Shown here: positions 2,681 to 63,642 of the stretch, in pieces
Numbering within the stretch: the stretch's first letter is position 1
Layout of the letters: each line of letters starts with the position of its first letter
The notes under the pieces: model-generated
Database searches by the model: none
Told to the model about the DNA's origin: nothing
The model's input: only the letters and a program-made list of their open reading frames with translations
Translations under genes and position numbers: made by a program
NCBI GenBank assembly: GCA_002269645.1
Contig: NIVC01000280.1
Span: forward strand, 1-64,000
DNA length: 64,000 bases
Reading direction: 5' to 3'
Source: Macrostomum lignano
Lineage: Eukaryota

Positions 2681-12803
<10,123 letters not shown>

Positions 12804-27235: not shown

Positions 27236-28954
27236 GGGGAGACAGCAACAATGGAACAACCCATTACTATTGGCTGCTCTGATGTTGTAGTTCATAGCTA
27301 ATATTGGCTTTAGATAGGGTAGTCAACACAGGAGTCACTTTCAATTCTTCCATAGAACTGAGCTTGCCAATGCAGTCCAATGTTGCTCCTCTAGCAGATA
27401 GTTGGTGATTAATTTGCTCATGCTATATTCCCAATAATATATAATTTGCTCTGAAAGGCAAGCTTATTGCTAACAATTAGTTTGTTGTACCAAGAAATGT
27501 GCATGTATAAAAAGTACAAAAAGCTCCAAAATATAACTTTATGTCAAATATATCTTATATGCATGTATATTCATGCATTTAAACTAAATTATCTCAATTA
27601 AAGGAGCCAATGAACAAATGTGATCAAAGGTGCATAATATACTCCTATTTATGCCTACTTGAAGAAAAATATTACTGATGAAATATGATAAAAAATAGTA
27701 TGATAAAATTGCATTGCATAATATGATAAAAAATATTGAATAAAAAATGTTGAAGCTTCTTGCAGCTTGTGAGCAGTATAAACCAAAAAAACTAAAGAAA
27801 TTCTTAAATTATGTAATTATTGTATAAATTCCTACTGAGCACTATGGCATGGTTAGGAAAATAGTTTAACTCTAATTTAAAACGAGAGCAATTCAAGACA
27901 GGTTTTATAGCTTCAATTAGTTCAAAAAATCTTGGATTCGATTGAATTACAATGTCATTTTACTTTATCCATACCATAAATTTAGGTTTGAATTAAATAT
28001 GCGCTATTTATGAGTTCATGAAAAGTGTGAATTTATCGCAGACTACACGAAAAGTAAACAATCAATTTTTCTACAAAATCGAAAGCAAAAGAACAAAATA
28101 ATGAGGCTGTTGGGAATAGTCTCAAAATACTTTGTCTGCGACAAGACAGCAAAAAAGTGCTAATTTAGAAATCTGTTGGCTAAATTGTTTCAAACTAGTT
28201 AGAAAAAGAAATATAATACAATTTTTACCACATACAATTTTTTATATCTATTAGTTGTCCCATCAAAATTAGCCCAGCAGTTTTGGAGAAGATATCGAAC
28301 TGACAAACAAACAAACAAGAATACAGACCTTAGAGATGGTAGTATATTTAGATTTTAAGTCGTTGTAGTCTTACAAAGTTAAATTATTAATGTATAGTAA
28401 CAGGAACTCATTGTAAAACTATCTTTTACATTGCGTCAAAACTTTTTAAAACTATTTTCAAAATTTATGTAAGCCAGATAATATAATTACGAAAGCCTGT
28501 TTTAGGGATCGTATAAAAAATTGTTAAAACTGTCTACTTTCAAACCGTCGTATTTACTTAACCCAGTTTTTGCTATTTTGTAATAGACTAATACTCTAAA
28601 AATATTTTCTGCTAGTGGTCATTCGATTGAATTTATATATTGCTAAAGCAATGAAAAAAATATAAGAATTTTCATTAGTTTTTGTTTGCACTTGGTGGAA
28701 ATTCCACCCACAGAAGATTTAATGTAATCAATTTTTTCGAAAAAAAACTAACTTTTAGATATTCGAAACACAGAGAACTAATACGAGTAGCATACGATAA
28801 TTCCACACCCTAATTTTTTCATGTAAAATGAATGGGCTGTTTACCGGCACTCTTTTCGTACACATGTGCAAATTCACGAGCAATATATTTTTAAAAAGCA
28901 AATTTAACCCTCCACCAAAACACGAATTCCCATCACCACCATGAGCCAGCATCA

Positions 28955-29444
28955 GACGTTGGTGCTGCCCATACTACCAACTCCCGAACAGCCAGCGGTT
29001 CCGGCTGCCGGTGCCACACTGCGCGGGCAGTTGGCCCTCCCTAGCCCAACCAACCTCCACGTGGGGGGGGGCGTGGTATAACGCTCCAGAACCAGCTGGG
29101 CCACATGTGTCGCGCACGGCAGACGGATCTTCTCATCCGGCGTGTTGTACAGGATCACGTGGAGCTCCCCGGTATAGTCCGGGTCCACCACACCACCCTG
29201 CACAGTCAGGCCCCGATTGGCCCAACTTGAGCAGCTCGCGATCCATGGGTGCCTGGCGGCAGGATAACGCAAAGGCCTGTGCGTATGATGGCAGTATCAC
29301 AGCCCTCCACGGTCCAATTTTCACAGGTAGCCAAATCGTACGTCACTGATCCTGCCCCGTGAGCCGCCGCGGCATCGCAGCGCCATGATCCACTAGCACG
29401 ATGCTCAACGGGACTGTCGATCAGGCTCTGGGTGTTGTACTCAT
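28955..29444 (-). pseudogene. dut: Intronless dUTPase pseudogene, probably cargo of the adjacent Polinton-like element
   Basis: Joined frames give AAMPRRLT/AGSVTYDLATC..TAIIRTGLCVILPPGTHG/IASCSSWANRGLTVQGGVVDPDYTGELHVILYN..HVAQLVLER (dUTPase motifs 1-4); at least two frameshifts and a stop. Confidence 0.85.
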
Positions 29445-30119
29445 CGCGGCTGAGGGTTCATAGTTCATTGGATTCTTATCATCTTCTAAAATGACTCTAG
29501 TACTACCCTCATAATCCTCGCCCCAACAAAAAAGCTAAGCCTAGTACTAACCCCCAGTATCATCCTAGAAAACAAAAAATACATCGAGAAAGATATATTG
29601 CGAGCAAAAAATATAAACAGACAAACAATAGAGAACAATTGAAGTCAACCGCCAATGACCAAATAAGAGATATGAGTAGGGATCAACCCAGGCTTGCTTC
29701 GTGTCGAAAAAGCTAAGCGCTTGCTTGAGCTGCTCAAGAAGATCTTCTGTCGCCGCGAGGTAATCGTCCGCATCGTTACTGCATGCTCCAACACTCGATC
29801 CTTCCACACATTCAAAAATACGTTGCGCTTCATACCTCTAACAATCGACTTCGACACGCCCATGCACCGCAAATCTGACAGAGGGTTTTCCTTTGCATAC
29901 ATGTACACCATTGAATAGTTTTTCGGCCTTAGAAATGCAAACTCCAACGGTGTACAACATGAAACTTCATCTTTTTAAACCATTAACTTCCCTTTCTACT
30001 TTTTGTATAAACCGGATGAGAAGGTGGATAAATACTAATGTCTAATACACCGCACTCCACAAAATCTTTACAAATCTTTACAAACAACGTATCCCGAGGA
30101 CTCGTCTCCGGGTAGGCTA

Positions 30120-32178
30120 CGAAGGGCGTTCAATAAGTTTCCGGACCATAAGAGCCAGCGCAATCTAGGCTGCTCAAAATGTACTCACATGAAAAATGTA
30201 CATCTCCTGAGATTTGACATAAAATATAAAGGTTACACAATAAACCTGAATCTCACAACTTCACTTCAAAGTCACCTATCACCTCCAACTTCAAGTATCT
30301 ATTATGGAACTGTCACGCATACACTGGAGAGCGATGATTTTTTACGACTACAAATGTGGTCTGAACCAGTCGCAAAGCTTAGAACGGCTTCGCCTAGCCT
30401 TCGGGGATATGATGTGTTCCTTATTACCAGTCCTCAACTGTAATCAAGGAACAATCACTTCTAGCTCTGTAGCTAGGCAACCCAGTAATCAAATGAAGGT
30501 ATTCAATTACCTTTAATCCGGATTCTTAGATTTCGTTCTTGAGTCGTTCTCAACTGTAGATCTCTCAGTAGATCTTGTAGACTTCTAGACGTCTTCAGGT
30601 GTCGATCGGGTCCGAGTTTCCTTCTTCTTTCCTTTAGAAGTATTTCCGGCCGGAATCTGTCGTTCGGACCAATAGGAAGCTTCCAAATTAACAATGGGGA
30701 TCCCTGCGCCAAACTGCGGTTTAATATAAGCCTACTCCTTCTAGTAGTGCCTCTATGCACTCTAGGTATGGCTCCGGAAACCACTGATAGTCTTCTAAGA
30801 TCTATCAGGGGCAGTCCTTCTGGAGACTGCAACCAGTAGAGTCTAAACCGACTCAGGAGTCTCAACAGACTCACTATAAACTCAAGTCACTCTTGGACTT
30901 GAGCGAGACGTCTCAACCAACAGGCGCAAATGAGTAAGGCTTACCGCAAGAACTCGACCACGTCTTCGAGTTGCTTCAGGAAGTCTGCTGCAGATCTTCC
31001 TCTTCGGAGCTTTCTCTCTCGGAGATTGTGGCTCCGGGTCCGTTCCGGACCACTTGTATTTATAGGCAAATGGACCCCCATGAGGTCACGTGGGTCCAAC
31101 TCTTCAGCTGTCAAAAAGGTCACGGTTTGGTTGCTGTCAAACTTGGCAGGGTAGAAAGTTACTCCATTGGTTCAGTGTAAAAGCGCGTGATTGGTCATCG
31201 CATTCGAGTTATTTTTAGTTACATTTGATTGGGTCACGTGCGTACGGTTGAATGATGCATCTCTCCTGGGGTTTGCGTTCGACACGTACAGGTTACACGT
31301 GATTGGGTGATTTCTAAATTTAGCATGCTCAAGGTCTCTCTTTTTCTATTGGTTAGTCAGAATATACTTATAATTCAAAGCATACCTTTATTCATGCTCT
31401 TCAACTTACTACTGAATAAAATGTGTGAGTAGTACGTTAACACTTTTATGTCTTTTTTACGAAAGGTAGAACACTCTACAGATACTGCACCCTCGAGAAG
31501 AACCGTCTTTGACTGGTTCGCGGAATTTCGTCGGGGCCGAGTGTCGCTCGAAGACGAGGCTCGCGAAGGACGACCCCCGAGTTCGACCACTCAGGAAGCA
31601 GTGGCTGCAGTGAAGGCCCTGGTTGAGGAAGACCCGCGATTGACAGTGCAACAGCTAGCCGCTGCTGTGGGCATTTCTGCTGGTAGCCATGATTGCTGGT
31701 AACAATGCGGACGGTGACTGCGGGCAGGTATGTAACCGACTGTATGCCCCAGGTGCTGCAATCCATCGCTGAGAAGCGCCCAAGGACTCGCCATCGCGGG
31801 TTGCTGCTCCACCAGGACAACGCCCCGGCCCACACTGCGCGACTAACTGTGGAGTTCATGGAGCAGAATCGCGTCCAACTGCTTCAGCACCCACCCTACA
31901 GCCCCGACTTGGCACCATGTGACTTCTTTGTGTTCCCACAAGTCAAACGCCTGCTCAAGGGAGTCCGATTTGCATCGCCGGAACAGACCGTCGAGGCCTT
32001 CCAAAGTCACCTGTTCGACATCCCTCAGTCGGAGTGGGCTGGCTGCTTTGCTACTTAGTTTGAAAGGATGAGAAAGTGCATCGAAGCTGCTGGAGAGTAC
32101 TTCGAAAAGGCCTGACATTTATCTTCCCTCTGACGCTTTTCATTTCTGTGCATCCGGAAACTTATTGAACGCCCCTCG
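30120..32178 (+). mobile_element. Mariner (Tc1/mariner, DD34D) DNA transposon, internally deleted and disrupted
   Basis: 26-bp TIRs at 30120-30145 and 32153-32178 (1 mismatch), flanked by TA on both sides. Transposase: MELSRIHWRAMIFYDYKCG..LAFGD (30304-30409), TAPSRRTVFDWFAEFRRGRVSLEDEAREGRP, HQDNAPAH..YSPDLAPCDF (34 residues between the Asp). The first catalytic Asp region is deleted and there is an in-frame TAG at 32056. Confidence 0.95.
30410..31480 (-). mobile_element. Solo LTR (1071 bp) inserted in the mariner transposase
   Basis: TG...CA termini with a 4-bp GATA target duplication (30406-30409 and 31481-31484). Removing it restores TTC GGG GAT ACT GCA CCC (FGDTAP). Minus-strand CCAAT/CACGTG motifs (31190-31310) precede a TATAAATA at ~31057-31064. 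Confidence 0.8.
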
Positions 32179-35064
32179 TATAAAATCAATGCCAGGATAA
32201 AAAAATCCGTATATCTATCAAGCACGCGGGCAGAAGCAAGTGACTGATGACATTGAATCCTTGAATAGAAAAACTCGTTGACAAATGTCTTCGGAAGGTC
32301 CAGAATAGCGCTACTAATCAGAATTGGCTTGTTTAGCAATACTCAACGAGGAGTCAAACTCACGCCCGCCAGAAGGTTTGTGTACAAAATCACGTCCATA
32401 AATTCCTCTTTAGCGACGTACGTTTCTAACTTTTCGGCACTAGTACACATGCAATAGCTCAGCCTGTCTCGAACCCGCTGCAGAAACTTGCCGTGCACCG
32501 CATTGTTTAATATTTAAAAAAATCTAGATCGAAATCACTGGTCGCCTTAGACCGCCGACGAATATTATGTTCAATGAATTCCTGTAGAATAGGACCTTCT
32601 ACAAATTCGAGAACACGATTTACACGCGTCACACGCATGCCTAACTCGAGGTAAATACGCAATGCTCAATGATGTACAATGTACCCCTCTTTGTGTGTCA
32701 CAGAGCCGATTAGCTTCCCTGTCGGAGAAGCTAATCGTTTTACGTCCTTGTATACCTCCGCATTCCTCCTTCTTGGATTAAGCTGACGTTGTAGACAAAC
32801 CCAATCCTGCTTCATATGCTTAGTTGGATAGGCACTATCAGTTCTCTCATGGCCAATAGCCAGAGGTAGATCGGCAGCAGAGTCGTGCAAAAACTTCGGG
32901 TAGTACATATCGACATTCAGTAACGACCCTCGTCCATTCGCGCAATAGCTAGACAGCCAGTTCAAAAACTGACTCGACTTACTCGGATTTTCCAACTCCG
33001 CAACATCATCAACTGGTAGATTTTCATGCACTCTACGAGGCAACCAACGATAGGCTTTATACGGCAGGGCCTGCACCATAAAACTGGAGTAAAAAGAATT
33101 AGCATTAAGGTAGGCCAAGTGAGTGCCATACGGTGCATTCTGTCATAGTCCTCTTAAATCCAGATTGTCGTCAAGGTCCAGCTGACGACGACATTCTTCT
33201 ACCATAGGATTTTTTGCCATAGCAAGATGTCGAGTGCCGAAACGAAACCCGCCTCGAATCGAAGCTTCAACCTCGGAGTACATACGAGCGTCTGAAAACA
33301 ACTCTATCGGCTCCTTCACCTTCAATAGACACGCAGCTAGTCTATACATTGGCGATCCAAGAAAATGGCACACATCCAGACCGTATTCTCGTATTGCAGT
33401 CCGACGAAAACTCTCAAATGAATTGCATAGCAGTAGTGAATCCAACAGTAAATACGCGGTCACATAGCCACGCAAATTCTCACAATCAAACTCTTGCCAA
33501 CTCTGCTAAGCGCGGGTGTAGTACATCTCAGAACACTCTTGCCGGGTCATTGAATCGTAAAACAAATCTCGCGGTGGCAGTTCAGTTACACTGTCCAACT
33601 TCTCATCAGAGTCCAAGTAACATTACGGAAACACTCCGTTGGAGTTTAGGAGTTTAGGAATGGAAGTTTAGGAATGGAAGGCTTGTAGTTTAGGAATGGA
33701 ACGGATCGGCCAGATCGTCCAGAGTGGATTCTGTTGGACCGGACTGCGCGCCCGCCGCCACGCCCGCCGCCGCCGCCGCCATCGCCCCGCCGCCCGCCCC
33801 CACACGTCGTCTGTGCGTCTCTGGCGGCGACGACTGCTCGACTGTAGGTATTTTCGACGGAATATGGACAGCATGACGTCGACCTTGACAACGGTGAGGA
33901 ACTTCCAGTTACTACCGCGGGACTGGAAATTAGATAGTCCAGGGAGATGGCCTCCTCACCTGTACCTCGTACGTCTGCGTTGAGTGATGCGCTGGCCAGC
34001 TCGGGGTCGATGCGCAGGTATTTGAGGGTTGTGCATGTTCACGCTGGTGAAGGGCACCCCAGTCGCTTCGAGGACAAGTAGTTGACGCTGAGAGATCGCC
34101 GATTCAGCATCAGAGAGTGAGCCTTGATGGTGTAGAACCTCTTGAAATGCTCGGGCAGAAACATAATATTCTCGTGGTGGTGCAATTTTTCGGTTGGGAA
34201 TGCAGTTAACCAACAACAAAAGCACAGAATATTCTGAGAGCTAGTAGTCTTTGCAGCTATTAAAACAATATTAAGGGAATGAAAAATATTGCACACAGTT
34301 CCATTGATTGAGTCAGTACTAAGGACCGTGGTAGCTTGTGGGAATTTTTTCGCATCGTAATAGATCCGACGATCGTTTGAGCGTTATAATACTGCATGAG
34401 GGTGGGAGAATTAGTTACACGCATTTTATGAAACCGAATTGCGTGCTCGTTGCTAGATTGAAAAAAAACAGGGAGGGTTTGCACCCTAGATTGGAACACG
34501 GGTGGTGTTTTCCCATGAAGGTCCGTTTGTAGAAAAATATCGGGGAGGGACGTTTTATTAGTGTTCGGCGTGGAGTGGTTGGTTCACAGCGTGGCGTTAT
34601 CCAAATATACTAAATCCATATGCTATGTGCCGATAACAGAAATGTTGCAACCACCCCACATATTTTGAATTTCGTATCAAGGGGAGAGGCCATTGAGTTC
34701 GAGGGGAAAACTTGTGCTTCTCGCTTGCTCGATAGCTTATGCATGAAATTGGCCCATGCCCAGGACAGTGCGTGACTGGAGCATTGGAAATTGCAGCCGG
34801 ACTATTTTGAGGAGCTTTCACGCAGTTTTGCCTTTATTGAATACGGGAGCGAACGGCTGCGGCGAGTGGCGCGCCATATGTTGCCTGGTAAGTAGTTTTT
34901 TACCTACTCTATCTCTGTATTGTACCATATTTTAGCAATAGAGTACTAGAGCATCATATGGCAACTTCAGTAAACAATAGACGAGACGTCCGTCCGGTCG
35001 GAGCGATTCCGTCGACTATGCAGGGGCGATACGATCCTAACTATGGTAACAATGGGCGCGAATG

Positions 35065-35190
35065 TTAGTGCTCCTACGACATTGGTATGTAAAAGACATT
35101 CTCCTACGACAGTGGTATGCAAAAGACATTCTCCTACGACATTGGTATGCAAAAGACATTCTCCTACGACATTGGTATGTAAAATACATT
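35065..35190. repeat. 30-bp tandem repeat (~4 copies)
   Basis: Unit tcctacgacattggtatgtaaaagacattc. Confidence 0.9.
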
Positions 35191-37589
35191 CAGCGTTATA
35201 TTACGAGTACTTAGTGGTATTGTAACTTAATATACTACTTATCTAATGGTAGGATTACATCAGCGCAAGGATGGCCTTGGACGAGTTAAGAGGGAAGCGG
35301 CCCGAGATTCGGAATCGTGAAGCGGGTTATGAGATAAGATACTTTTTAGTTAGTAGTCACTAATCTATTATTTAACGGGTGTATTGTGCCTTTTAGCAAC
35401 TGTCCATGGATGACAGGCTATGGTGCTACAAAATGAATGGGCCTCCAAAGTTGTCGCACGAACGTATGACTCGCTGCCGGAAGTAGAGGCCCGTCGAAGG
35501 GAGGTAAGACAAAATATTCATGCTTTTCTTGTCGCAGAATGCACTAATTAATCATGGAAGCCCGATTCTCCTTTTAGGCCCAGGCTGCATGGGTGAGTGA
35601 GGAGGTACTTTTTTGTGAGGGTAAAATTTATGCTGTCTGTATGAAAATTAAATTATTTGTCTGATCTTTCTTGAAATCTTAGGAGCGCGAGAGGCTGTTG
35701 TTCGCGGGATTTGTAACGAGGTGCTGATACAGCGTTAATATATTTAGTGTGAAACAAGTCTATTAATGTAGACCAGCTTTACTATATGCTGCCACACATT
35801 CCAGGCTGCGGGTGTTCCGTCCGGCGATCGGGATCCGGTACAGCCTATGACGGTCAGTGATACTTGCAAAATTAAGAATATAAAGGCTAAAATCTTATTT
35901 GAAATTCGTGTTACAACAAAAGTTATTAATGCAACCAATTTCAAATTCCGTGTCCGCCATTCGGTCGCGGAAATCCTCGCGGATAGTGATAGATACATTT
36001 CATAATCCTTGGTTTCAGGATGCGGGCCTGTCCAAGCCATTCCGCTCGAGGGGTTGAGTAGTCTTGAGCATACCTTTTGTTGGTACATTGCGGGCAAAGT
36101 TAGAGGAGGCTACTACTTTGGGGCAGGTTCGTTACAGACTGAGGTCTATCTATATACTTGTAAATACATGATTGTGTGTAACTTTGGTTTAGTGCAGGGT
36201 TGTCCGTATGTGCTTGTTTATTCTTTTAGTTTTGTGTGCAGTATAATCCTTAATCCGTTAGTTCCGAGTCGTTTGTTCATTGCAATGGTTTGCTAGCGGG
36301 GGACTGTGTCTCATTATCGGAAAATGACTCGTTTGTTAAGGAATGGAGAGGAGACGGTGATACATTCGGGATTTGAGTTTGCGGTGGTGTGGTTTTTTCT
36401 GCGGTATGTTTGACAGCTTAATTGTATGGGTATACGTGTAACTATGCTATAAATTCCCTCTCATATCGACTTTCCAAGGATCGAAATGCAAGTAACTTGC
36501 TTAGGGACTACGATGCCAGCTGGCCGGGAGGGAGGGGGGAGGGCGGCAGACCGCAGGCGGAACCGCGGTGACTACGTTCGCTGTGCCAACTCCTGTCGGC
36601 CCACGGGGGGCGCTCAGGGGTATTTCTAGTATGACTTAATCAAGTGTTTAGCTTTTATTTTTACTTATTGTATTACGGTAAATTTTATTAGTGAATTCTA
36701 TTTGTGTTTGCTCACTCGTTGTTGTTGTGACTTTTTTCGCCGTCTACTTTTCTACATGTTAACATAGTACGGTAAATTTATTAATGAATGCTTTTTATAT
36801 AATGAATTTGGTTACTTCGTTGTTTTGTCTTCTTTCGCCGTCTACTTTTTGCATGTTACCATCTACTGTAAACTTGCTTGCGCGCTATTATTTCTACGTG
36901 TAAAAATACATGTACAGTACATTGGCCTAGCCGTATTCGTTATTAAAATGTGCGGAGTTATGAGTTATGCCTCAATTATTCTACATGTACTGGGGGGGGG
37001 GGGTAAATGGCGCGATAACGGAGAATTGAGCTTTAAGTTAAATATTAATTTACTGGAAGTGGCATAAGCTGCATACGGCATACGCACCTCCTGCCACCCG
37101 ACCTGACGAGGCTCAAGAATTATTTGAGCAGCTCTCGGTACAGGTGAAGGTAACGGCGCAGCGCGACACAGCGATAATCCTCGTAGACCCGAATGCGGTT
37201 TTGCATAGGTCCGAGCGGTCGCAAAGTGCAGGCTCGCAACTTTTTTGGGTTGCAAGCGCAGGCGGCGGAACGCGCGTGGCCGGAACGCAACACGGAGGCA
37301 GGCACTTTTTTTATTAGAGGCAGGGGGTTGTGTGCACCCTGGCGCACTTTAAGCGACATGGGCGCACAATCGGCGAGAGGCATTGCTGCCCATTCCGCCG
37401 ACTCCCCTGAGCAGGCACACAAGCGCGCGGATACGTACGCAGGCACACACACACAGGAGTGTACAGCGGCCCTAACTTTATATTATCGTTAGGCATGTAC
37501 ACTTCACTGCGCCTTGGGGGGTTGACTCTCAAGGCCGTTAATTGCACGAGCAGAGCCAAGCCGAGATTCCAATTCAGCCCCAAATTGAT

Positions 37590-37740: not shown

Positions 37741-38100
37741 ATGGATTGCTAGTCTAGCGTATGGATTGCTAGTCTAGCCTATGGATTGCTAGTCTAGCCT
37801 ATGGATTGCTAGTCTAGCCTATTGGATTGCTAGTCTAGCCTATGGATTGCTAGTCTAGCCTATGGATTGCTAGTCTAGCCTATGGATTGCTAGTCTAGCC
37901 TATGGATTGCTAGTCTGGTGGACACCAGTAATGGAACGGAATGGATCGCTAATCGAGTCACTAGAAGTGATCAAACGAAGCCATGTGCCAGTGGCTCACC
38001 GTGGCGCAACTTGAAGAGCATCAAGAGAAACAGGCCGCAGCAGACAACTCGCCACTCGTGACTCCCTCTGCAAGCCATGCTGTGAGTTCGAACAAGAAAG
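37741..38100 (-). repeat. Inverted duplicate of the cadherin exon-1 cassette plus the 20-bp intron satellite
   Basis: 37917-38100 is the reverse complement of 40601-40784 with 3 mismatches in 184 bp. 37741-37916 is ~9 inverted copies of the satellite at 40785-41680. Confidence 0.95.
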
Positions 38101-38824
38101 TGCCGCGCTCTTCGGTCCCATCATCGACTCCTCGTCTGCGACCTTCGTCTTCGCGATCCGCTCTACCGTCCGCGGAAGCAGCCACCGCGGCGCTACTGCC
38201 GCGCGCTCAGGGACGCTAACGCGCACAGCCGCTTTGCTAGCGCTTTCAGCACTGCGCCCGGCGGCAAGCGTGGAGGTGTTGCATAATATTGATCAGTGTG
38301 ATGCGACAAGTAACAAGCTGAATAGTGACAAGCTGCAAGTGTATGTGATTTTCGTTGCACACACGCACTTACAGTTCACTGTGGATTTTTGAACTCCATG
38401 CGAATCACCAATAGCCGAAAAAGTTGCTCCAGTAGCAAGATAGCGTAGAGCGACACTAATCTGCTGCTATGGACTCAGAGCAAAATTGCACCCAGTCGGG
38501 TGCTGCAGACGCTTGCCAATCAGATGACACAGTTCGTCGACATGTTCCTCTCGCAACCGAAACCTCGATTGATGATCATTGTAGTCAATATCAAATTCGA
38601 AATCTATACTTTCGTTGAATGTTCGGGGACGCTTAATTGGCTCCTCCGACGGAATCTTCGGAATCTGACTCGTAGAACATGTTCGCTCAATGGATGTGAT
38701 ATGCTTTTCAACCGATTACAGGCTTGAATAGCTCGTGGTTCACTACTCAAATTGTCACTCTCGAATTTACTATGACACTAGTCAACATTAGATTCTATGC
38801 AACAAACCGCTTGTAGCGCGACTA

Positions 38825-39185
38825 GTCACTATTCACTTGTAGCTTGTCGCCTACTTGTAACTAGTCAAGTCTCTATGCAACACAAGTCACCATTCACTAT
38901 TCACTTGTAGCTTGTCGCCTACTTGTAACTAGTCAAGTCTCTATGCAACACAAGTCACCATTCACTATTCACTTGTAGCTTGTCGCCTACTTGTAACTAG
39001 TCAAGTCTCTATGCAACACAAGTCACCATTCACTATTCACTTGTAGCTTGTCGCCTACTTGTAACTAGTCAAGTCTCTATGCAACACAAGTCACCATTCA
39101 CTATTCACTTGTAGCTTGTCGCCTACTTGTAACTAGTCAAGTCTCTATGCAACACAAGTCACAAGTCACTATTCACTTGTAACTT
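38825..39185. repeat. 68-bp tandem repeat (~5 copies)
   Basis: Unit cactattcacttgtagcttgtcgcctacttgtaactagtcaagtctctatgcaacacaagtcaccatt. Confidence 0.93.
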
Positions 39186-40622
39186 GTAAAATACCATTTA
39201 TCTTAAGTTATGTGTTATACGCATTATACGTTATGGAAGACTTCAGCCGTCATGAATTCTCTGGAAAATTGAAGCCCAGCTATATTGCAAATATATACAT
39301 GTACGCTCGTAAATCAAAACTTTAAATACACACCTATAAATATTTCTAAACAAAAAGGACTTTTGAAATTTGCTAAGCAACTGTGACCAGCTCTTTAGTT
39401 CATCGGTTTCCAAACTTGAAACTTTCGGCCAGCTGAAAATTCCAGTTAAGTTTGCTGTAGGCATTCGCCGAATATGGCAATTTATGACGCATCACCGTCT
39501 TCAGTTCTTTTCTTCGCAGATCAGCAGTTTTACGCCCGTAACATCATTACAAGTAAATTTTTGAAAATTCAGCACAAAGCATTCTCTGCCTTTCTCTCGC
39601 ACTAGCTGGGAGCTTCGTCACTTTCCACTGCGTACGAGTTGTGCAGGGATGCGGTCTTGAAAAGTACATTGGGAAAATACACCAGAATTGGAGAAATTCT
39701 AGCCATGCAGGGAATTGGGAGAACAGATCCTACTGGGACTCCATCAGTGGGGTGCGCAGCCCGAAAGCCAGTCGCAATTTTTGTTGCCAGGGGCGCGGAT
39801 GCGACCCGTGCGCAGACGGCGCCAACGGGGGCCGTTTTTTTTGCATTGGAAAATGCAGCTCCAAGTCAACTATAAAGGGATTTTTGCAATGGGAGAATGG
39901 GAAGAGGAAAAAATTAGCAACTCCCACTCAAAGCCTCGCAAAGGCGGGGAGGAGGCTCCCGGCGGTCCCCAGGGCACTCATATTTCTTCTGCATTTCCTG
40001 TGCCGCCCGCCGCCACAAAGTCCTCCATCGGAGGCCGGGCCCGCCCATGCAGTGTGCCAGGGGCTGGCACTGAATCTCAGCCAATCGTTGGCTCACCTGG
40101 TTGCTCATAAACCCCCCCCACGGCTTTATTGGCAGATTTTCTCTGTTTCTACATGAATGATTTGCATTTGCTGACGCATCCGCTGGGCCAGTTTAGAGTG
40201 AAGAAACAAGTGCAGCAATTCTCTCCCCCCTCTATCTGGTTTCTCTTCTTCTTCAGCCATAAGTTTTCCCGTTTTTCCTGTTAAGCGGCTCTCACACCTC
40301 CACCAATAGCGCCAGCAGTTCCCCAACTGCCCATGCCTACTCATAACGGGATCGTAGTGAGTGTGTCTGTGCGCTGAGCAGGGAGCCCTGAGTTGCCCCC
40401 AGCAACCGCTTTGATGATGGCAGACCGGTGAGGGGGGGGCGAATCCGGTGCTGCGCGCGCTGCGGGAACAAAATGCATGCTAAAATTGACCGGCAACATG
40501 ACTTTCGACAACAATAGGAGGGAGAGCTTGGGCAAAGCTGATCCGCTACGGTTCCGTGAGAGTCAGGTGCTCAGGCTTCACCTTCACCTTCTGGCCAGCT
40601 CTTTCTTGTTCGAACTCACAGC

Positions 40623-58212
<17,590 letters not shown>

Positions 58213-62414: not shown

Positions 62415-63642
62415 TCAGTTTGCACTGATCATCAGTTCAGTGTCGGCAGGATCCAAACGGTCACTGCTCCAAGACTTCAACAATTGCAGCTTTAAAATCT
62501 GACTGCAGCGAAGGGGGCAGCGGCTTCGTCTGAGCCGGCTGCAGAGGCGGCCGTTGCTGCAGCGGGGCGCTGGGCCGATGCAGTGTCCGTCCGGTGGATC
62601 GGCAGAAGGCGGCCCCGCCGCTGCCGCCGAGTCCACGCCGCGCTGAAAGATCTGGCAGAAATTCTTGCGAAAATTCTCCGAGCTGAAAAAGTACACGAAC
62701 CCGTTGATGCCGTTGTTTAGCGAGGCGAGCATTACGAACAGCAGGCCGGCTGTGTAGGCCTGTTCGCGCATGTTGGATTTCCAACTGTACGTTGCCTCAA
62801 GAATCTCAAAGACGCACTGCGGCATGGTGAGCAGGATGTGTATGATGCACACGGGCACCAGGAGGCGATTCACGTGCGTGCCCGTGGTGGTCGCGGCTGA
62901 AGTCGCGTTGAAGCGCTGCTGCTTTTGTGGCAGAGCGACCTGCGCTGCTGCAGGTTCTGAGCTTGATGGTGGCATCCGCTGGATATCGACATCTGCTGCC
63001 GGCCGCGGGTTGGCTCTGGCGATGATGCGGATGAGTGTCACGTTGAAGACGGTCAGCAGCAGGAAGGGCAGCAGGCTGTACAAGCTCAGCGTCGTGATGA
63101 AGAACGCGAGGCGGAATTTATTATCGTTGCTGTCGCACCTGTCAACTCTGATACCGTCGTTGTAGCGAATAACGCTCAGCTTGAATATGATGACACGTTT
63201 CTTGCGAGCAGGATCAGCATTGAGCAGGACCACACCGCCAGCTTGAGTCTTCGGCGGTAGTACAGACTGGACTTGTGCGGCCATTTGGCGAACAAGAACC
63301 GTTTCAAGAGTCATCAGCACGAGTATCCAAGTAGCCGCCTCCTTGAGGAAGTAGTGTGGGAAGGTGTGCACAACGCAGAGAAAATCGCTCTCAAGCCTGA
63401 TGTCCGCTTCGACTGGGTGGCCAGCATGATGAAGTAGCGGATGGGGTTCACAGCCACGCAGGTGTCGGCCACCGCAGCAGGGTGAAGACATCGCGGGACT
63501 TGGACATGCTTCGAGTTCGCCGCATCACAACAATGACCATTATGTTGGACAGGCAGCCTATCAGCATCAGAGTGGGATAGTAGGCCATGCCGAACACTCG
63601 AATTTGCCACGGCAGGCTCCCATTCGCGCTCGAATTGCTCAT
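62415..63642 (-). CDS. Intronless rhodopsin-class (FMRFamide/peptide-receptor-like) GPCR with four apparent frameshifts (pseudogene or assembly errors)
   Basis: TM1 YYPTLMLIGCLSNIMVIVVM; TM2 LAVADTC; TM3 FLCVVHTFPHYFLKEAATWILVLMTL(ERF); TM5 LYSLLPFLLLTVFNVTLI; TM6 RLLVPVCIIHILLTMPQCV; TM7 LASLNNGINGFVYFFSSENFRKNF. Confidence 0.8.

Follow-up and report, generated by a model that had tools for sequence, protein, structure and literature searches.

The closest described systems to the element considered here are the Alpha adintoviruses/Polintons, which, in the accessible text of PMC8502044 and PMC11071296, carry a PF03175 protein-primed DNA polymerase B (pPolB) with bidnavirus-like matches, an rve integrase with a chromodomain, an A32-like ATPase, a phospholipase A2 (PLA2) and a protease, together with AGTAGT termini and 6-bp target duplications. 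Vertebrate Mavericks, as the accessible part of PMC8097293 describes them, have the (AGT)2 end motif, the 6-bp duplication, a similar size and mostly decayed copies; their intact elements lack introns and are built of two opposed modules. Polinton-related insertions in flatworms have already been reported (accessible part of 10.1101/2025.04.19.649669). We analyzed a 64,000-nucleotide stretch of Macrostomum lignano DNA (contig NIVC01000280.1, positions 1 to 64,000 of the forward strand; hereafter the window), which almost certainly contains a broken, internally deleted Polinton fossil, together with fuller copies of the same family elsewhere in the genome. The family shares the Alpha and Maverick features named above, with its ATPase and protease as putative members; unlike in vertebrate Mavericks, its core genes lie on one strand and its early genes are spliced.

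Two further systems resemble parts of this family. In adenovirus E2, one early unit yields a single-stranded DNA-binding protein (SSB) and the protein-primed polymerase through alternative splicing; the fold of that SSB is unrelated, and E2 has no TATA-binding protein (TBP)-like domain. In beta- and gamma-herpesviruses, ORF24 of KSHV, the herpesvirus associated with Kaposi’s sarcoma, combines a viral TBP fold with an altered TATA-like box, TATTWAA, before virion genes, while early promoters are conventional; it keeps four Phe residues, has its own RNA polymerase II (Pol II)-binding domain and acts with five other viral factors (accessible part of PMC12529657).

We find that the window copy is quite probably a dead member of an Alpha-type Polinton family with a spliced early unit and a TBP-like domain that likely switches on virion genes at a TATAAGY box. 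The family differs from the adintoviruses in the accessible part of PMC8502044 by uniting SSB, TBP-like, kinase and dUTPase genes in one lineage, with spliceosomal introns and an SSB–TBP splice. That paper already covers Polintons with their dUTPase and gives a TBP label for MELD viruses: its figure legends name TBP and dUTPase for MELD viruses, and its supplement has dUTPase and SSDBP among genome-map labels that are not assignable to genomes. The texts of PMC8502044 and PMC11071296, figures being outside this scope, describe no splicing or late box, and the accessible parts of 10.64898/2026.06.19.733378, 10.64898/2026.10.13.758929 and PMC10748475 mention no TATA or dUTPase. In the literature within reach (which excludes subscription papers, Repbase entries and bioRxiv supplements) we came across no account of splicing in Polinton early genes, of an SSB–TBP fusion or of a late box in Polintons; the TBP of those figure legends was the only related mention.

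The element family in the host genome

Searched at the DNA level, the host genome contains 29 matches to the PolB core and 24 to the PolB end together with the dUTPase. The fuller copies are 19-21 kb long, with AGTAGT ends and 6-bp target duplications, and fall into six lineages (C362; C2373/C1136; C2529/C1090; C1975; C272/C889; C1680) with 53-61% pPolB identity. Their common gene order, with all core genes on one strand, is SSB, TBP-like, kinase, zinc-finger pPolB, dUTPase, PLA2, putative ATPase, putative penton, further conserved open reading frames (ORFs), integrase, basic core protein and, last, a putative major capsid and a putative protease; the kinase is missing in the C2373 line. The genome-wide look for fuller copies proposed by an earlier, sequence-only reading of the window reveals integrase genes and AGTAGT terminal inverted repeats in the family, with ATPase, capsid and protease as putative members. 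The target duplications are perfect in four of the eight elements with both ends read (C1391, C2529, C889 and C3539), and among the other four, two flank words recur at the opposite end of a sister contig, which suggests assembly swaps. At C1668:41380-42972 and C272:397125-399965, element ends are an inverted copy of the element’s own opposite end (1.6-2.8 kb), as expected from template switching.

A sibling pPolB passes PF03175 (75 bits, cut-off 25.8), a sibling kinase passes PF01712 (85 bits), and the PLA2 gene, located before the ATPase in the virion module, matches PF08398 at 37 bits. The integrase reaches rve at E 5e-7 (30.3 bits, just below the cut-off of 32.6) and Chromo above cut-off, the ATPase gives only a weak Pox_A32 match (E 0.02), and the protease has no Pfam match itself, while an outside homolog found via its profile matches Peptidase_C48. 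The putative capsid and penton are conserved ORFs of 440 and 308 amino acids with homologs in outside loci. The pPolB also matches densovirus-labelled PolB at E 2e-44 and 8e-37, and we take its N-terminal Cys/His motifs to resemble OTU. A sibling pPolB matches a public record labelled Macrostomum lignano at 100% identity; the nearest outside protein is 45% identical and the next 36-37%. By the criteria in the accessible text of PMC8502044, the family is, as judged from its sequence, an Alpha-type adintovirus/Polinton. The earlier identification of a Polinton/adintovirus relic therefore stands, on the sibling PF03175 pPolB, the gene set and the termini, as does the suggestion of a distinct lineage in this host, since the pPolB tree places the host copies and one metagenomic protein in a long-branched clade.

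A ~15-kb derivative (C877:114786-131544 and relatives, L120 and L220-L232) lacks most of pPolB and retains the SSB, TBP-like, dUTPase, integrase and virion genes, which makes it likely that its polymerase is borrowed in trans. Its copies are >99% identical with different flanks, one has a perfect 6-bp duplication at C3539, and the genome holds ~23 equal-scoring TBP-like matches.

The dUTPase follows pPolB in all six lineages, with a ratio of nonsynonymous to synonymous substitution rates (dN/dS) of 0.08-0.14. A dUTPase without an intron, in a genome with a host-like dUTPase in three copies, might instead be a processed host gene that came to lie next to a PolB relic by chance, as the sequence-only reading itself had considered. 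Among 98 PF00692 matches in the host genome, three near-identical top ones look like the host gene, and a host-like copy scanned with its flanks has no Polinton genes within ~10 kb. Identity between the host candidate and the eight dUTPases borne by elements is 33-43%, and in a 30-row tree a branch with support 87 separates the host candidate from these eight, which lie together (FastTree only; 59 redundant viral rows dropped beforehand; outgroup of viral contigs plus one host gene). Given the low identity and the fixed pPolB link in six of six lineages, in addition to the dN/dS values and the branch, a chance retrocopy is extremely improbable, and refuted if recent; an ancient capture from a host ancestor may have occurred. 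The family dUTPase is, on sequence grounds, viral cargo and not a recent host retrocopy. The absence of an intron, mentioned in the earlier reading, carries no information because the host candidate likewise sits in a single open frame.

As a marker of novelty the dUTPase did not hold: the PMC8502044 supplement (accessible part) already lists dUTPase and SSDBP for adintoviruses, and a second Polinton-like element in this genome also has one. It is consequently the least novel part of the cargo, and the TBP-like domain, SSB, kinase and introns are more distinctive. Profiles of dUTPase and SSB matched none of 94 outside loci fetched by pPolB similarity, many loci being short and the profiles being built from one genome. 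A different dUTPase stands beside a PC4-like gene and pieces resembling another pPolB type at C471:26023-35355 (L252, L253) and C2132:148694-156981; at the C2132 locus, two inverted dUTPase copies flank a transposase-like insert.

Splicing of the early genes

None of the eight TBP-like ORFs examined has an ATG; each opens directly behind a phase-0 acceptor. In all eight copies the SSB gene carries a phase-0 GTRAG donor at one shared motif, and this candidate donor was named before the comparison with RNA-like contigs. In run X7, one of six RNA-like runs, this predicted donor is joined exactly and in frame to the TBP-like acceptor, and the same donor is also joined to another acceptor, immediately ahead of the kinase ATG. 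Joints across the SSB and kinase introns occur in runs X1, X2, X6 and X8 (four of the six RNA-like runs, from three studies), and a DNA-looking run, X19, has no joints. The position of the SSB intron is conserved in all six lineages, and the spliced SSB is present in public gene models of the host.

Flatworm spliced leaders end in AUG. A start codon for the TBP-like protein could hence be supplied by spliced-leader trans-splicing instead of fusion to SSB, a reading consistent with the missing ATG and phase-0 acceptor of the TBP-like ORFs and with pPolB, which likewise begins without ATG at a phase-0 acceptor in five of eight copies (L023, L107, L110, L112, L122), in register with the ATG of the other three. 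We regard trans-splicing as improbable, given the cis joint from the SSB donor in X7 and the lack of a leader-like loose end at either the TBP-like or the pPolB acceptor among those listed. That the SSB–TBP fusion is made in vivo is, on these observations, fairly likely.

The SSB model (mean pLDDT 61, with a disordered, acidic C-terminal tail) resembles African swine fever virus CP312R (Z 11.4, root-mean-square deviation 4.8, 183 aligned), Enc34 SSB (Z 7.3) and T7 gp2.5 (Z 6.7). Nucleocytoviricota clusters make up most of its Atlas neighbors, and some of them contain DUF2738 or Pox_I3 members. The predicted fold is of the nucleocytoplasmic large DNA virus (NCLDV)/T7 type and is shared with these three proteins; in contrast to them, the family SSB shows at most 12% identity in PDB matches, is split by an intron and has an alternative TBP-like C-terminus.

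Other departures in gene structure were seen. The C2529 pPolB has a likely GT..AG intron near the DTDS motif. At L023:4868-6289 the TBP-like and kinase genes share one open frame, with a kinase intron where five other copies show none. In the C362 accessory arm (L023:8061-9960), a multi-exon transcript runs on the plus strand and has six or more GT..AG introns; a relic of it lies at window positions 34383-36042.

The TBP-like domain and the late box

The 185-residue TBP-like domain passes PF00352 (25.7 bits, cut-off 22.9) and adopts a two-repeat saddle fold in the predicted model (pLDDT 92), which Foldseek aligns to human TBP at E 2.6e-10, TM 0.75 and 18% identity. It has 75 matches in the host genome, with dN/dS of 0.14, 0.15 and 0.47, compared with 0.11-0.17 for the kinase. 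More than 100 further PF00352 matches in the host genome, in several high-copy groups (e.g., C414, C96, C100 and C130), lie apart from the host TBP on C70/C713/C1301 and are probably other Polinton families.

A profile search with the TBP-like domain returned 145 matches, four of them close and the others forming a broad divergent group apart from canonical TBPs (trees by FastTree); one of the close relatives was checked and is at most 67% identical to anything in the host genome. Searched at near length against the word index, the TBP-like alignment gave nothing, and viral-contig scans with it, with a single pPolB and with a narrower outside TBP alignment were likewise empty. Among the 94 outside loci, 15 have a related TBP-like ORF and two a kinase, and the TBP-like ORF is present in nine of the 13 loci having a capsid match. 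A single pPolB clade (support 0.98) takes in all 15 and leaves out the host’s long-branched clade. In the outside protein P0012, a TBP half is seemingly joined, as judged by eye, to a degenerate kinase-like part.

Numbered as in Table 1 of PMC12529657 (accessible part), the column of F99 holds Pro in all 23 aligned Polinton TBP-likes, which suggests a single origin, and E188, F190 and F207 are kept in all. In the host family, F99 is replaced by Pro, F116 by Tyr, and N69 and N159 are both replaced in eight of eight sequences, so that the four-Phe/two-Asn set of canonical TBP is not present.

The word TATAAG[CT] stands before the putative penton, core, putative capsid and other late ORFs. The late modules (44 kb) hold 37 sense and no antisense occurrences, against 5.5 expected; the early modules (likewise 44 kb) have none in sense, where 4.8 would be expected. 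A canonical TATAAA/TATATAA precedes the SSB gene in all six lineages. In 11 outside TBP-bearing loci examined, other words precede the late genes (ATAAAC in five, TTAAGC in three); this signal is weaker, in AT-rich DNA, and the words cluster on the TBP tree.

These observations would best fit a nuclear, host-Pol-II-dependent element with a spliced early replication unit and a TBP-like late activator. The canonical TATA before the SSB gene would start an early transcript via the host machinery. This early RNA would give (I) SSB with its acidic tail when unspliced at the internal donor, (II) the SSB–TBP fusion when spliced to the next acceptor, and (III) kinase, and possibly pPolB, when spliced further. 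SSB, kinase and dUTPase would aid protein-primed replication and exclude uracil from new DNA, and the TBP-like domain would recognize TATAAGY and bring host Pol II to the virion genes. We consider action of the domain at this box slightly favored.

The same domain may be viewed as a decoy or repressor that binds host TFIIB or other TBP partners and damps host transcription or defense, with host TBP reading TATAAGY. All 23 sequences retain the acidic stirrup (D/E186, E188), the first DNA-bending Phe is lost throughout and N69 in the host’s clade, and TATAAG is one base from TATAAA, all as a decoy would allow. However, F190 and F207 are invariant, F116 stays aromatic, early modules and late modules each have a box of their own that the others do not share, and the outside late words change along with the TBP tree. 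We therefore consider the decoy rather unlikely and retain the late activator.

By analogy, the family would most likely work like KSHV ORF24 with TATTWAA, as a herpesvirus-style late switch, without being a member of that system; it differs from ORF24 in having a 185-residue domain that lacks F99 and would be attached to SSB. In a bolder and doubtful extension, the SSB–TBP fusion would coat strands displaced by pPolB, deliver a private TATA-binding domain to replicating genomes only and fire TATAAGY promoters, with the F99-to-Pro TBP-likes as a widespread and largely overlooked late switch across a large Polinton group.

Several observations weigh against the proposed switch and the assignments beneath it. 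F99 and N69 are gone from the TBP-like domain and F116 is Tyr, whereas the KSHV mimic needs all four Phe (accessible part of PMC12529657). The family showed no partner factors resembling the six activators of herpesviruses. The TATAAGY motif and the region limits, the latter set by the analyst, were chosen after upstream sequences had been viewed; the lineages are themselves related, and the stop codon of the previous gene overlaps some of the boxes. The X7 joints come from one contig each, the SSB–TBP contig having 30 letters on its short side, and contigs of other runs cross the SSB donor-acceptor interval unspliced; the RNA-like runs were taken as RNA by guess, and none of the joints listed leads to the pPolB acceptor. 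The 15 outside TBP-likes scored as stand-alone ORFs, and nine mapped ones have their own ATG, which argues that the fusion is not general. The putative capsid and penton have no Pfam or PDB sequence match, and we assume these labels from size, synteny and motifs. A second terminus of the window copy was not found between 34 and 42 kb of the window.

Polinton gene timing is poorly known, and the family offers a testable model in its TBP-like domain, six-letter box and splice junction; the RNA-like runs suggest that it is transcribed and spliced in a laboratory flatworm. If the model is right, an integrating group of mid-size DNA viruses would possess an early-to-late switch of its own, in parallel with the beta/gamma-herpesviruses. 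Taken together, the SSB, TBP-like, kinase and dUTPase genes recall the tool kit of large DNA viruses, which bears on Polinton–NCLDV relations.

Layout and decay of the window copy

The window copy is only a fossil that points to this unusual, expressed family. It consists of the following features.

28786..28850, plus strand: decayed Polinton terminus reading AGTAGC..., directly past the dUTPase; local alignment to the family terminal repeat
28952..29444, minus strand: dUTPase pseudogene with three frame changes and one stop; PF00692 48 bits
29640..30117, minus strand: C-terminal part of pPolB, broken, with LRPKNYS, LSFFDTK and GHWRL; dN/dS 0.34 and seven indel blocks against C362
30118..32180, plus strand: Tc1/mariner insertion with 28-bp inverted ends and a DDE_3 piece at 31693-32058; missing from the same locus on C3654
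30410..31480, strand not given: solo long terminal repeat (LTR), TG...CA, with 4-bp duplication GATA, nested inside the mariner; 44 matches in the host genome
32181..33660, minus strand: pPolB core, from GVFP to a decayed DTDS motif; six stops, five indel blocks, dN/dS 0.30
33693..33937, minus strand: pPolB N-terminal fragment with GSNW, stranded between two deletions; 90% over residues 75-104 of the sibling N-terminal ORF
33925..34210, minus strand: deoxynucleoside kinase relic, C-terminal part; tblastn 58-64%, own-profile matches E 5e-8 and 8e-5
34237..34383, minus strand: TBP-like relic, end of second repeat only; tblastn 68%, E 5e-14; profile match E 8e-11
34383..36400, strand not given: relic of the family accessory arm, pieces 63-80% identical, by comparison with C362

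The sequence-only reading had joined short ORFs into a whole pPolB followed by a dUTPase on the same strand. Three-frame translation recovers its motifs in colinear order on the minus strand: GSNW at 33916, GVFP at 33637, YLNANSFY at 33112, NNAVHGK at 32507, RYTDF at 32216, LRPKNYS at 29932 and LSFFDTK at 29717. The YTD motif is indeed there, as a decayed form of the siblings’ GGDTDS. The dUTPase lies on the PolB strand (29444-28952), its pieces aligning to the sibling ORF in frames -3, -2, -1 and -2. Of 21 window ORFs scanned against Pfam, the dUTPase piece clears PF00692 (cut-off 22), and the PolB pieces alone have no match; their identity comes from the PF03175-passing sibling, whose core (residues 343-839) they match at 81-82%. 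They do not assemble into a whole pPolB, since two deletions leave ~680 codons. Within the span claimed for PolB, 30118-32180 is the mariner with its nested solo LTR and contains no PolB, and the kinase and TBP-like relics at 33925-34383 had been overlooked.

Compared with the 21.1-kb C362 copy, the window copy is a chain of deletions: 1.5 kb in pPolB between GSNW and GVFP, taking the OTU-like part, most of the exonuclease and endonuclease VII; 1.2 kb upstream of GSNW and 0.5 kb, both cutting through the kinase and TBP-like genes; 2 kb spanning SSB, which is missing; and ~8 kb past the dUTPase, where the PLA2, ATPase, virion and integrase genes are absent. The alignment to C362 ends at 28860, and the terminus at 28786..28850 aligns to the family terminal repeat with a score of 62 (maximum of 54 in 100 shuffles). 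The pPolB dN/dS of 0.30 against C362, with six stops in 482 codons, fits purifying selection once and decay later. The copy would have lost its late module and most early genes, decayed, been duplicated with the host region and then received the mariner, which is the latest event because the same host locus on C3654 lacks it.

Other old copies, 75-78% identical to the window, lie at C257:187763-188783 and C1157:247765-248545; their match also stops just past the dUTPase, and in C257 the terminus is present right after it. Many of the 44 genome matches of the solo LTR are paired ~10 kb apart. Elsewhere in the window, a 20-bp satellite encloses 281-bp inverted arms flanking 2.5 kb (37823-40878), in an arrangement that differs on C3654 and C3945. 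The minus strand carries an LTR retrotransposon with long open gag, protease, reverse transcriptase, RNase H and integrase frames (43008-47580), a host-like kinesin motor piece (4926-6104) and a seven-transmembrane receptor ORF (62415-63524).

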